Below, piece after piece: positions 1,267 through 2,624 of a DNA stretch of 10,891 bases; position 1 is the first letter of the stretch, and the number at the start of each line of letters is the position of its first letter. Made by a program: the position numbers and the translations under genes. The stretch is from a virus (Duplodnaviria > Heunggongvirae > Uroviricota > Caudoviricetes). The stretch is from the IMG/VR virus record IMGVR_UViG_2541047778_000014. One strand, written 5' to 3'. The notes beneath the pieces were generated by a model. The model saw only the letters and a list, made by a program, of their open reading frames with translations, did not search any database and was not told where the DNA came from.

Positions 1267-1509
1267 TTATGCTCCGGTGGTGAACAGGTCTAACGCTTCC
1301 TTCGATTTACGCACCGCTTCGATAGTGCGGGTCGTGATATCTGAATTAGCGCCGCCTGACTGGAAGTGAATTTTGAATAGCTCAAGCTTCAGTTCGTCAG
1401 TGCCAATGAACTGAAATGCTTCCTCTGCGGCTGCGTTCTGGTTCATGACCAGCTTGTAAATCTCTAACTGGAATTTCTGTTCTTCAGTCATGGGAATAAT
1501 CTCTGCCAT
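1267..1509 (-). CDS. hypothetical small phage protein (80 aa) upstream of the terminase genes
   Basis: ORF 2 nt upstream of the small terminase gene; GGAG Shine-Dalgarno at 1514..1517 on the minus strand (minus-strand sequence cGGAGccaacaATG); acidic, helical-looking composition; no family recognised. Confidence 0.6.
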   Translation of the reverse strand: MAEIIPMTEEQKFQLEIYKLVMNQNAAAEEAFQFIGTDELKLELFKIHFQSGGANSDITTRTIEAVRKSKEALDLFTTGA

Positions 1510-1521
1510 TGTTGGCTCCGT

Positions 1522-1601
1522 TTATCCGTTAAAAGGGATATCAGTTAAGTTATCCCGTGTAGGGTATAAGCCATTGTCGAGACCACTCATTGAATGGTCT
1601 C
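1522..1601. repeat. cluster of short inverted repeats (TTATCC/GGGATA motifs and a 7-bp stem GAGACCA...TGGTCTC) in the 5' region of the packaging genes
   Basis: TTATCC at 1522..1527, GGGATA at 1535..1540 and TATCCC at 1551..1556; perfect 7-bp inverted repeat 1579..1585 / 1595..1601 with a 9-nt spacer. Candidate protein-binding or RNA-structure element; function unknown. Confidence 0.3.
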
Positions 1602-1736
1602 TGCAATAACCGATGTCTTTCCATCAGTCCGCCACCACAAAGAATCTTTTTTGCCATAAGGCAGGAGGTTCATCTTTCAGTGGCTGCCAGTGTTATTTCC
1701 CCACTTTCTGGCTTGGGTTGTTTCGCTGTACTGCCG

Positions 1737-2279
1737 TTAATTGGTGAGTCCGGGGATTACGGTTTGCCCGTGCTGTTCAAGGCGTTCAATTCTCGCCAGT
1801 AGCTGAGGCTTCTTAATTTTTCCCCAGCGATTAAGCAGGCGGCCTGACATGCTGGCAACATCCTTCTCTTTCATGTACTCCAGCATTACGGCATTTCTCT
1901 CTTCTTCAAATTGACGATGACCAACCTGAAGCATGGCGTACATCCAGTTGAATGCGTTGATGTAAGCAATTTTGATACGCATTGCTTCTTTTTTGGTGTA
2001 GGACATAACCAAAAGCATCAACCCATCCTTGCGGAGACGGTAGAATTTTTGCGGCTTACCATTCTGTAACTCATTGTTTTTATAGCAAAGCTCAAAGTTG
2101 AGCTTTGTATCAAACTCAGGAGGGCAAGCTTCTATGGTTCGTTCAATGTCACGAACCACGTTCTTCGGCAGCTTTCCAAATGCTTTTGCCACCATAAAAG
2201 AATCTGTAACCGGATCGTTGTTTGCTACAAAAATTAGGTCTCTGAAATCTATATCGTTAACAACGGTTGGGTAGTTCAT
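1737..2279 (-). CDS. phage regulatory protein, Rha family
   Basis: N-terminal region (SFMVAKAFGKLPKNVVRDIERTIE...YRLRKDGLMLLVMSY) matches the Rha domain pattern from recall. Start placed at the internal ATG (2279, MNYPT...) which has an AAAGG upstream; the ORF-track start at 2348 is an alternative. Confidence 0.65.
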   Translation of the reverse strand: MNYPTVVNDIDFRDLIFVANNDPVTDSFMVAKAFGKLPKNVVRDIERTIEACPPEFDTKLNFELCYKNNELQNGKPQKFYRLRKDGLMLLVMSYTKKEAMRIKIAYINAFNWMYAMLQVGHRQFEEERNAVMLEYMKEKDVASMSGRLLNRWGKIKKPQLLARIERLEQHGQTVIPGLTN

Positions 2280-2420
2280 TGCGTCTTTACCTTTTAGAAA
2301 GATGAGCCTGTTCGCACAGAAAAGCCGCCCCGAGATGGTCGCCACCATATACGGCAGTTCTCAGGCTCAGCTTTCTGAAAGACTCGGGATTGTTACGCGC
2401 TGCGATGCGCGGTTTACTGC

Positions 2421-2450
2421 AGATATAAAAAAGCCCCGCGAATGCGAGGC
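2421..2450 (-). terminator. intrinsic terminator downstream of Rz/Rz1
   Basis: Minus-strand RNA GCCUCGC-AUUC-GCGGGGC (7-bp stem with one G-U pair, 4-nt loop) followed by UUUUUUAUAU; plus-strand stem halves at 2433..2439 and 2444..2450, A-run 2427..2432. Confidence 0.6.
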
Positions 2451-2624
2451 TAAATCCTGGTATTTGTAATGACTGGCTCTTATCTCAACGCAGCCCCTTA
2501 CCGCACGCCAGATGCTCAATATCAAGCATCAGCAATGAGATGTTTAATCTGGATTCACTCCAGAAGTGATCACCACCCTGTCTACAGAGCCAGATGTGAA
2601 GGATGATGAGTAAAATTATCGCTA

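Follow-up and report, generated by a model that had tools for sequence, protein, structure and literature searches.

Between the lysis and packaging genes of phage P22, on a map that reads 15/Rz1-rha-orf25-orf80-orf59c-3, lies the gene with which the name rha originated. It has been described as a late-operon gene that is harmful without IHF (PMC4936722); the Rha proteins of P22 and phi80 block phage growth in IHF-lacking hosts, the only published phenotype (PMC4936722, citing Henthorn & Friedman 1995). The phi80 gene belongs to the same Pfam family as the Rha examined here, and its product blocks lytic growth in such a host (Mozola & Friedman 1985; Henthorn & Friedman 1995, as cited in PMC4936722). 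For the P22 late operon a single promoter is reported, together with intra-operon terminators whose role is unknown (PMC8022706). Hairpins that sequester the ribosome-binding site, combined with upstream terminators, have been described for the T4-type genes I-TevI, segB and mobE (PMC2988022).

How does the present locus compare? The window, that is, the whole stretch of 10,891 nucleotides analysed (IMG/VR record IMGVR_UViG_2541047778_000014), is a CUS-3-like (P22-like, Lederbergvirus) Escherichia coli prophage, with 99.9% DNA identity to phage CUS-3 over the interval concerned and a 100% match to an APEC chromosome. The copy of the prophage in the window is truncated by IS911. The features needed below are these:

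5788-6510, minus strand: roi, 240 aa, in the nin region (annotated roi in CUS-3; phrog_63)
2625-3062, minus strand: Rz (i-spanin), upstream border of the slot (Pfam Phage_lysis, 122.5 bits; ORF list; CUS-3 annotation)
2678-2869, minus strand: Rz1, nested within Rz and with it the end of the lysis cassette
2485-2637, minus strand: ORF of 50 aa, homologue of Sf6 gene 65 and Kapi1_042 (phrog_11822, E = 1e-36)
2451-2432, U6 tail to about 2422, minus strand: intrinsic-terminator-like hairpin, AGCCUCGC-AUUC-GCGGGGCU, then U6
2396-2411, minus strand: small GC hairpin (CGCGC-AUCGCA-GCGCG), after the terminator and before the leader hairpin
2277-2384, minus strand: structured leader of ~105 nt, a conserved hairpin; the covariance-model match ends in the rha ATG
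2280-2348, minus strand: upstream ATG plus 23 codons, in frame with rha here, not a conserved part of Rha
1737-2279, minus strand: rha, 180 aa (phrog_518, E = 1.5e-81); the longer ORF is 1737-2348
1510-1736, minus strand: spacer of 227 nt, conserved behind different cargo genes in an alignment of downstream junctions
1267-1509, minus strand: orf80, 80 aa (PF10834 DUF2560, 147.7 bits, cutoff 25; phrog_571)
824-1264, minus strand: small terminase subunit, downstream border of the slot region (phrog_309, E = 2e-68; CUS-3 annotation)

Everything listed in the initial annotation, including a Rha gene, an 80-aa gene, the small terminase, a terminator and a Roi-like protein, is found where it had been placed, on the minus strand. 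As in P22, Rz/Rz1 is followed by the terminator, rha, orf80 and the small terminase, in that order. Judged by this synteny, the locus shows the textbook arrangement of P22 and its relatives, in which rha and an 80-aa gene separate lysis from packaging genes; it is already known, so that the finding as first put forward is ordinary. Nor is the 80-aa gene unrecognised, as it had been called: its family is known, and it is the hkbM of HK620, gp67 of Sf6 and orf80 of P22. It is nearly invariant in all fetched loci, P22, HK620, Sf6 and epsilon34 included (at least 99% amino acid and 96-100% DNA identity); against PDB sequences the DUF2560 protein gave no match with E < 0.1. The 50-aa ORF is conserved and has a hydrophobic N-terminus; sharing 13 nt with the end of Rz, it sits between Rz and the terminator. 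It is annotated in Sf101, epsilon34, Sf6 and Kapi1 and was found in about half of the surveyed loci. The spacer contains a relic ORF of 28 codons (1673-1587) and two hairpins (1601-1579 and 1556-1531), the second of 6 bp followed by U4; an epsilon34 annotation that touches this region reads 'similar to N-terminus of ST64T orf118'.

The Rha-family assignment stood up to a Pfam HMM search. An N-terminal PF09669 (Phage_pRha) domain scores 76.6 bits against a gathering cutoff of 29.9, and a two-helix C-terminal PF10549 (ORF11CD3) domain, at residues 148-199 of the 203-aa ORF, scores 91.1 bits (cutoff 25). CUS-3 and Sf101 have an identical Rha (100%), and P22 Rha is 53% identical to it over the full length (BLASTP, E = 4e-71); position and full-length similarity together mark P22 rha as its orthologue. 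In an AF2 model (pLDDT 83) the N-terminal domain is folded as helix-helix-beta-hairpin. A Foldseek search of the PDB with this model gave nothing significant (best E = 0.19, the top matches being mostly PadR/MarR proteins), and the sequence had no PDB match with E < 0.1. Rha is predicted to bind DNA as a winged-helix-type protein, with its C-terminal domain helical. What of its link with IHF? The literature cited above does report one, as the initial annotation had said (PMC4936722, citing Henthorn & Friedman 1995). At 0 or 1 mismatch we found no site matching the IHF consensus WATCAANNNNTTR near rha or the leader, and the total in the window was no more than expected by chance; the published link is therefore not explained by such a site.

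Roi was said to carry a second, paralogous Rha module. PF09669 is indeed present in both proteins above its gathering score, at 36.8 bits (cutoff 29.9) in Roi, which also has a PF03374 ANT (KilAC/ANT) domain at 114 bits. 'Paralogous' overstates the relationship: BLASTP found no pairwise similarity between Rha and Roi (E = 0.07, over a misaligned stretch), and a profile comparison matched 31 columns (hhalign E = 0.002, probability 12.5%). A recent duplication is ruled out by the absence of BLASTP similarity, with that 31-column match standing alone. On these profile matches Rha and Roi are distantly related proteins with an old domain in common.

The interval between Rz and the terminase genes had been described as a variable slot, and a comparison of 81 loci with an orf80 at least 99% identical supports that description. 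The slot measures 307-1916 bp, and its cargo comes from at least 10 unrelated families, among its contents being Rha, KilA-N, T5orf172, gp49/66, Tad2-like and Acb2/Tad1-like genes, or none; an invariant rha next to Rz was not seen. In two otherwise collinear loci (L037 and L078) the slot is empty (307 nt), the presence/absence pattern of a moron. The exchange of cargo genes takes place exactly between two conserved stretches, the leader on the upstream side and the 227-nt spacer on the downstream side. Two labels call for comment. The 'HNH homing endonuclease' of phiv205-1 that lies beneath the match is in fact a mislabelled small terminase, and the 'anti-CRISPR' labels of phage Huey, which are automatic annotations, fall on Tad2-like and gp49/66 genes. 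Genes of the Tad2-like and Acb2/Tad1-like kinds, in the same slot of relatives, make a conflict-related role conceivable; they tell nothing about Rha itself. The slot is a hotspot of cargo exchange with recognised anti-defence genes of these two kinds in relatives, and hence a good hunting ground for new counter-defence or selfish genes.

Is rha a separate transcription unit, as the initial annotation proposed? The terminator that it placed after Rz/Rz1 is present: a 4-nt loop closed by 8 pairs, of which 6 are G-C, with a U6 tail and -14.1 kcal/mol. It is the best of six terminator-like sites within 700-4500, where 3.8 ± 1.7 would be expected by chance. Conservation of the site extends to P22, epsilon34, HK620 and many IMG/VR loci, and epsilon34 has it annotated as a rho-independent terminator. 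Between it and the leader, the small GC hairpin maintains pairs 45-57 and 46-56, CG having become UA in three sequences. At the scan threshold the minus strand showed no sigma-70-like promoter from the terminator to rha (2452-2279), in a consensus scan of a kind that may miss a weak or activator-dependent promoter. From 2700 to 2279 the same strand has no promoter-like site, pR' (4461-4432) being the only one found on it. Downstream of rha, at 1510-1736, no intrinsic terminator was found on the minus strand. Two of the Juhala/Hendrix hallmarks of a moron, its own promoter and its own terminator, are accordingly not seen for rha. The separate transcription unit is unsupported: the scan showed nothing promoter-like ahead of rha, and for the P22 late operon a single promoter is reported.

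The place where a promoter would sit is occupied by the conserved, structured leader. Its 5' base, (U/C)CUUU (2382-2378), pairs with the rha Shine-Dalgarno sequence AAAGG (2294-2290), which lies 10 nt from the AUG, a long spacing. Further stems follow, AGAAAG:CUUUCU, UGAGCCUG:CAGGCUCA, AGAA:UUCU and GCCG:CGGC, in a long and nearly continuous helix (28 bp in total, about 20 of them in the lower part) whose internal loops are small and whose 3' bulge is conserved. A CUGUG motif, formed by the 3' end of the AGAA:UUCU stem and the first bulge bases, is nearly invariant (CUAUG in 2 of 24 leaders); the apex is variable. The fold has z = -3.27 (RNAfold), and RNAalifold counts 8 compensatory pairs in the alignment. 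The covariance model R1 scores 133 bits on the window leader and 36-50 bits on divergent types. In an alignment fitted to the model and representing about five sequence lineages, 98.2% of the cells are paired and 18 of the 28 pairs show double changes; none of 500 shuffles was as good, and slid controls reached 37-55%. Pair 35-63 is UG in 30 of the 33 rows, and R1 matches on the reverse strand reach 25-30 bits against 110-133 bits in the sense direction. Such G-U pairs and the much weaker reverse-strand matches point to a sense RNA.

What the leader has, then, is what distinguishes an element sequestering a ribosome-binding site, namely conserved pairing over the Shine-Dalgarno sequence with compensatory changes. 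The mean paired probability of that sequence is 0.85 over 44 leaders and 0.45 in the window, where an alternative pairing competes. The same leader stands before non-homologous cargo, in front of Rha, KilA-N, T5orf172/GIY-YIG-like and HNH genes, and in one locus (L089) a second copy lies behind pR'/tR', before an HNH+AP2 gene. A scan of 1200-2700 against Rfam 15 at E <= 5 returned three matches at chance level, none of them on the leader, and the conserved hairpin before rha looks to be undescribed. Going by the pairing, it probably keeps the translation of rha low.

Might the leader stretch instead code for protein, as an N-terminal extension of Rha (203 aa in the CUS-3 annotation, 201 aa in P22) or as a functional leader peptide? 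Its upstream ORF is in frame with rha in the window, in P22 and in L089, and in 43 of 44 distinct leaders an invariant, Shine-Dalgarno-like GAGRA is followed 7-12 nt later by a start codon and an open frame of 17-24 codons. In most relatives, however, this is a separate ORF whose stop adjoins the cargo ATG, and in Sf101, where Rha is identical, one additional nucleotide in the stretch makes the upstream frame stop at UAA. The frame relative to the invariant nucleotides also differs by type, so that no peptide is conserved, and other frames are often open too. The stretch precedes KilA-N, T5orf172 and HNH genes as well, and coding does not account for compensatory changes on both arms. The cluster of the 180-aa form of Rha holds 705 members against 62 in that of the 203-aa form, most homologues having 179-185 aa. 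A coding role is thus highly improbable. The Sf101 shift, the unrelated cargo and the cluster sizes rule out the 203-aa protein as the general product, and by these comparisons the common start of rha is ATG 2279 (180 aa), not ATG 2348, which corrects the start codon in the CUS-3 and P22 annotations. Could the conserved flanks serve at the DNA level only, as 'boundary sequences', linkers through which mosaic modules undergo homologous recombination, and be without function as RNA? Cargo is swapped precisely at their edges, and both CUS-3 and Sf6 have annotated boundary sequences at other places. A linker, though, requires sequence identity and not base-pairing, whereas the two arms have diverged and stayed complementary, with G-U pairs that work on one strand only; we give this idea very little credence.

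There remain two readings that we consider unlikely, if less so. The first makes rha, with or without orf80, an autonomous moron, transcribed from its own promoter with a terminator upstream, and expressed in the prophage to interfere with phages or the host. The terminator immediately upstream, a slot polymorphic in presence and content as morons are, GC content falling to 0.40-0.43 across the 5' two thirds of rha, and the anti-defence genes in the slots of relatives all fit this picture. In the same slot of Kapi1, moreover, RNA-seq of the lysogen is reported to give the Tad2-like gene Kapi1_043 the highest expression of any prophage gene (PMC12922286), a hint that some promoter lies upstream. 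Yet Kapi1_043 has no leader and starts about 25 nt past the terminator, so that its expression is not transferable to rha. The 140 nt upstream of rha are a structured leader common to unrelated cargo and not a cargo-specific promoter region; promoter and downstream terminator are alike missing from the scans, and the literature places rha in a single-promoter late operon (PMC8022706, PMC4936722). The other reading takes the leader to be mainly an element of RNA processing or stability, such as an RNase III site, that divides the lysis mRNA from the mRNA downstream, occlusion of the Shine-Dalgarno sequence being incidental or relieved by cleavage. RNase III sites are known from the lambda N leader and the T7 R sites. 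The length of the nearly continuous stem, its small internal loops and the conservation of its 3' bulge would suit such a role, as would its location at a junction of functional modules, which holds for this locus and for the copy behind tR' in L089; a pure processing site, on the other hand, would not need the conserved pairing to cover the Shine-Dalgarno sequence exactly, as it does in most types. Processing is in any case compatible with the explanation that we prefer and does not exclude it.

That explanation, which we regard as probable, is that the locus is a standard P22-like slot of the CUS-3 type, in which rha is an insulated and translationally damped gene of the late operon. Having no promoter of its own, rha would be transcribed only by Q-antiterminated polymerase that sets out from pR' and reads through the terminator; polymerase without antitermination would halt at 2451-2422. 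In late transcripts the leader hairpin would restrict the access of ribosomes, and little of a potentially harmful DNA-binding protein would consequently be made. The short ORF begins in the apex of the hairpin and ends beside the rha ATG (in the window it is fused in frame), and ribosomes translating it may occasionally open the hairpin, coupling the two translationally. Leader and spacer, upstream and downstream, may act as homology arms for ORF-for-ORF swaps of Rha, KilA-N, T5orf172 and other cargo.

A wider proposal is offered tentatively, and it may well prove wrong. Terminator and Shine-Dalgarno-pairing hairpin, with its short ORF, might constitute an undescribed family of cis-regulatory RNAs of lambdoid phages, a portable gate set before potentially toxic DNA-binding or nuclease cargo (Rha, KilA-N, T5orf172, HNH-AP2, ANT) wherever it stands in the late operon, after Rz and after tR'. 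Loss of control at the gate, for example because IHF mutants have an altered host factor, or by way of RNase III, could then make Rha lethal to the phage in IHF- hosts. The leader offers a testable handle on how phages hold Rha-type proteins in check.

How does this arrangement stand beside known systems? The nearest are rha (orf201)-orf80 of P22, the CUS-3 genes (ECRS218_0024, hkbM) and those of Sf101 (gp63, gp65), which share the position, the terminator, the leader, the pair of Rha domains and the DUF2560 gene. P22 differs in having no 50-aa gene-65 ORF and in its additional orf25 and orf59c. The C-terminal 60 residues of its Rha are nearly identical to those in the window, while the N-terminal DNA-binding domain is another allele (about 35% identity). 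The Roi of HK022 and CUS-3 resembles Rha in its Rha-type N-terminal domain and differs in its C-terminal domain and in its place, the nin region of the early right operon; HK022 Roi reportedly gives an IHF-dependent growth phenotype likewise. Among the morons of lambdoid phages, the 'ant moron' that P22-like phages have between genes 16 and 9 is also a variable, non-essential insert in the late operon with rapid gene flux (PMC2629481), but has its own mapped promoters and terminators, whereas for rha neither a promoter nor a downstream terminator was detected.

The T4-type genes are a more distant parallel. In T4 a late promoter within the hairpin yields transcripts that are unable to fold (PMC2988022), while in the window leader no internal -10/-35 pair is conserved, by eye, across the leader types. 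There is no sequence relationship between the T4 hairpins and the leader, and Rha is not a known nuclease. The likenesses lie elsewhere. In I-TevI, I-TevII, I-TevIII, segB and Aeh1 mobE, as in the leader, a stable hairpin covers the Shine-Dalgarno sequence of a gene for a DNA-binding protein or nuclease within a long polycistronic transcript, with terminators nearby (PMC2988022), and part of the leader's own cargo is of the HNH or T5orf172/GIY-YIG-like kind. By analogy, we read the damping of rha as akin to that of the T4 homing-endonuclease genes.

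Which genes surround rha? The genes of interest all lie on the minus strand of the window, and are listed from Q onward.

4439-4957 (-): Q
4461-4432 (-): near-consensus pR'-like promoter at the 3' end of Q (TTGACA, 18-nt spacer, CATAAT; 11/12 matches), the expected late promoter pR'
3519-3842 (-): holin S
3059-3535 (-): endolysin R
2625-3062 (-): Rz, with Rz1 nested within
2485-2637 (-): 50-aa ORF, homologue of Sf6 gene 65 and Kapi1_042 (phrog_11822)
2451-2422 (-): terminator-like hairpin
1737-2279, or to 2348 (-): Rha ORF
1267-1509 (-): 80-aa ORF, orf80, PF10834 (DUF2560)
824-1264 (-): small terminase
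72-827 (-): large terminase, cut short

Positions 1200-2700 match CUS-3, a P22-like Lederbergvirus of E. coli RS218, at 99.9% identity, and 121-7682 is 100% identical to prophages of many ExPEC and APEC chromosomes. The same genes are annotated in CUS-3, Sf101 and RefSeq, and in the reference genome of P22 the order is 15 (Rz)/Rz1 - rha - orf25 - orf80 - orf59c - gene 3 - gene 2. The arrangement of the genes is already known: it is the canonical P22 order, in a copy nearly identical to a published phage. Since P22 shows the order Rz/Rz1-rha-orf80-terminase and rha is already in the literature, the arrangement is not new. What is added here is a corrected rha start codon, a conserved leader predicted to pair with the Shine-Dalgarno (SD) sequence, and a post-lysis slot that serves as a cassette-exchange site and also hosts anti-defence genes.

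Two inverted copies of IS911 (window 1-120, with the orfA N-terminus on the minus strand, and about 7683-8950) bracket 121-7682. The left copy truncates the large terminase gene near codon 236, which leaves this copy of the prophage unable to package DNA. Beyond the second copy, on its right, the window goes on with early-left genes (an erf-like region in BEN5202); replication and immunity genes are thus missing or rearranged. The conserved 50-aa ORF, missed in the initial annotation, has a hydrophobic N-terminus. It overlaps the 3' end of Rz, ahead of the terminator, and roughly half of the related loci have it.

Is the Rz-to-terminase interval truly variable, as had been proposed? To answer this we surveyed 80 IMG/VR loci with an orf80 at least 99% identical, together with annotated phages. 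Across 81 loci, 307 to 1916 bp separate the stop of Rz from the start of orf80, the ORF families within are unrelated to one another, and two loci (contigs L037 and L078) are empty. The variable slot is thereby borne out. Rha occupies it in 36 of the 81 loci, as alleles 35-100% identical; the other families are Phage_gp49_66 (19 loci), KilA-N (17), T5orf172/MUG113 (13) and Tad2-like (PF11195; 5), followed by DUF551, an Acb2/Tad1 hairpin-domain protein (PF24729) and several unassigned ORFs. Phage Kapi1 has its Tad2-like gene, Kapi1_043, in exactly this slot. Slot genes that are Tad2-like (PF11195, 92 bits) or carry the Acb2/Tad1 hairpin domain (PF24729, 66 bits) are as follows.

L090 (Kapi1) 2045-2566: Kapi1_043
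L032, L008 (Huey), L015, L083 and L036: slot genes of these five loci
L023 348-632: slot gene of this locus

Two Huey genes, one gp49/66-like and one Tad2-like (L008 382-762 and 997-1497), are both labelled 'anti-CRISPR', which looks wrong.

In a wider scan with the leader sequence, about 60 of 120 loci carried the Rz-terminator-leader-cargo module in lambdoid contigs without a downstream orf80; the slot is therefore not confined to P22-like phages. On the 3' side of the cargo stop, a 227-nt spacer (1510-1736, -) is common to loci with differing cargo and contains a 28-codon relic ORF (1673-1587) and two hairpins. With a conserved leader upstream and a conserved spacer downstream, we conclude that cargo is swapped ORF for ORF between two arms. 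One spacer hairpin lies at 1601-1579 (GAGACCA...TGGTCTC), a position taken in other loci by a different one (AAAGCCAYTC...GAGTGGCTTT); the site may form a second structured element ahead of orf80.

The 80-aa gene, initially called unrecognised, matches PF10834 (DUF2560) at 147.7 bits and is P22 orf80, HK620 hkbM and Sf6 gp67. Its protein is at least 99% identical, and its DNA 96-100%, in P22, epsilon34, HK620, Sf6 and all fetched contigs. The genes on either side vary: different cargo upstream, and at least four types of small terminase downstream, with an optional orf59c/hkbN. orf80 itself is unusually constrained. The small terminase of phiv205-1 (L009 825-1265) carries the label 'HNH homing endonuclease', which also looks wrong.

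Where does rha begin? The roughly 140 nt from the terminator to the ATG at 2279 are conserved ahead of mutually non-homologous proteins: Rha (CUS-3, Sf101), a T5orf172/GIY-YIG-like protein (epsilon34), KilA-N (HK620) and other Rha alleles, including that of P22. Sf101 encodes an identical Rha with one extra base in the leader stretch, which places the upstream ATG (window 2348) out of frame, and in epsilon34 and HK620 the same downstream ATG starts unrelated proteins. Most database homologues of Rha are 179-185 aa long, the 180-aa cluster being ten times the size of the 203-aa cluster. From the frameshift, the shared ATG and these lengths, we conclude that the common rha product starts at 2279. 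The extra residues of the 203-aa (CUS-3) and 201-aa (P22) annotations are leader sequence, and the annotated starts of L001 (CUS-3) 6538-7149 and L004 (P22) 39575-40180 look wrong.

The initial identification of Rha domains in two proteins was upheld by Pfam: rha gives PF09669 (76.6 bits) and PF10549 (ORF11CD3, 91.1 bits), and Roi gives PF09669 (36.8 bits, cutoff 29.9) and PF03374 (KilAC/ANT, 114 bits). The two share a core motif around (T/S)x3(A/I)AxxFGKxHxxVxRxI; beyond it BLASTP detected no similarity, and recent paralogy does not hold. Window and P22 Rha are 53% identical over their full length. Between the CUS-3 and P22 alleles (window 1737-2279, -; L004 39575-40180) the last 60 or so residues (ORF11CD3) are nearly identical, whereas identity drops to about 35% in the N-terminal DNA-binding part. 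The GC content of the 5' two thirds of rha is 0.40-0.43 versus about 0.50; since this part coincides with that divergent from P22, rha is itself mosaic. An AlphaFold2 model (51-sequence alignment; mean pLDDT 83) places short strands, two helices and a beta-hairpin before a 42-residue helix and a second helix, the latter two being the ORF11CD3 region; the predicted N-terminal order is winged-helix-like. Foldseek against the PDB found no significant match (best E = 0.19), and its top matches, mostly PadR/MarR-type winged-helix regulators, are suggestive only.

The leader (2277-2384, -) folds alone at -65.5 kcal/mol (z = -3.27 versus shuffles), and the same hairpin of about 95 nt recurs in no fewer than five sequence types that have diverged. 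When 24 leaders were aligned with plain MAFFT, RNAalifold identified compensatory changes at eight pairs. A covariance model based on nine sequences from two leader types picks up the divergent types, that of P22 among them, with scores of 36-50 bits (E about 1e-6 to 1e-9). Across 33 distinct rows of the model-fitted alignment, whose figures lean towards structure, standard pairs fill 98.2% of cells and both sides change in 18 of 28 pairs (122 cells), a result reached by none of 500 shuffles; when partners are slid by 1-3 columns, pairing falls to 37-55% and no more than six pairs change on both sides. Even the near-identical leaders of P22 and contig L014, however, differ by paired substitutions such as CCUUUG/CAAAGG versus CCGUUG/CAACGG and ACCAG/CUGGU versus GUCAG/CUGAC. 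Conserved G-U pairs and far weaker reverse-strand scores point to a sense RNA. No Rfam family matches the leader. A second copy (contigs L089 603-706 and L046 741-844; 35.8 bits, E about 1e-5) immediately follows Q, pR' and tR' and stands ahead of a 170-aa HNH_3 and AP2 endonuclease-like gene (L089 701-1213).

What might this hairpin do? Its 5' base, (U/C)CUUU, is predicted to pair with the cargo's AAAGG SD. Across 44 distinct leaders the mean pairing probability of the SD is 0.85, against 0.10 for the AUG, which stays open; the window's own SD reaches only 0.45, because an alternative pairing competes. The inner stem holds an invariant SD-like GAGRA, with ATG, GTG or TTG 7-12 nt later, from which a short ORF of 17-24 codons runs down the 3' arm in 43 of the 44. 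It ends at -13 to +8 nt of the cargo ATG, or is fused to the cargo (window, P22). The peptide is not conserved, so that the candidate ORF, if it matters at all, would do so as a coupling device; other frames are often open too.

Is rha then a separate transcription unit, as first proposed? The intrinsic terminator after Rz/Rz1 is as described (8-bp stem with six G-C, 4-nt loop, -14.1 kcal/mol, six U); it is kept in P22, in HK620, in dozens of IMG/VR contigs and in epsilon34, whose annotation calls it rho-independent. Minus-strand consensus scans revealed neither a sigma-70-like promoter between Rz and rha nor a terminator downstream of rha, and the proposed unit is not supported. According to the phage L genome paper, the P22 late operon has one promoter only, and terminators are common inside late operons, where they perhaps halt polymerase that lacks antitermination (PMC8022706). 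A secondary summary of the original genetics places P22 rha (orf201) in the late operon and describes its product as harmful to lytic growth when the host has no IHF (PMC4936722). Pointing towards separate transcription, RNA-seq of lysogens is reported to show Kapi1_043 as the Kapi1 gene with the highest expression (PMC12922286). It lacks the leader, starts about 25 nt past the terminator and has no visible promoter; its expression cannot simply be transferred to rha.

The best reading, drawn by analogy, is that rha would be an insulated, translationally damped cistron inside the Q-dependent late operon. The leader as an RNase III processing element would be a compatible alternative. The insulated, damped cistron is suggested by its likeness to the T4 homing-endonuclease genes, the closest described logic to leader plus terminator. 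The cargo behind the leader consists entirely of DNA-binding or nuclease modules (Rha, KilA-N, T5orf172, HNH-AP2, ANT). In those T4 genes, which are carried on long polycistronic transcripts, the ribosome-binding site is masked by stable hairpins, and terminators restrict read-through (PMC2988022).
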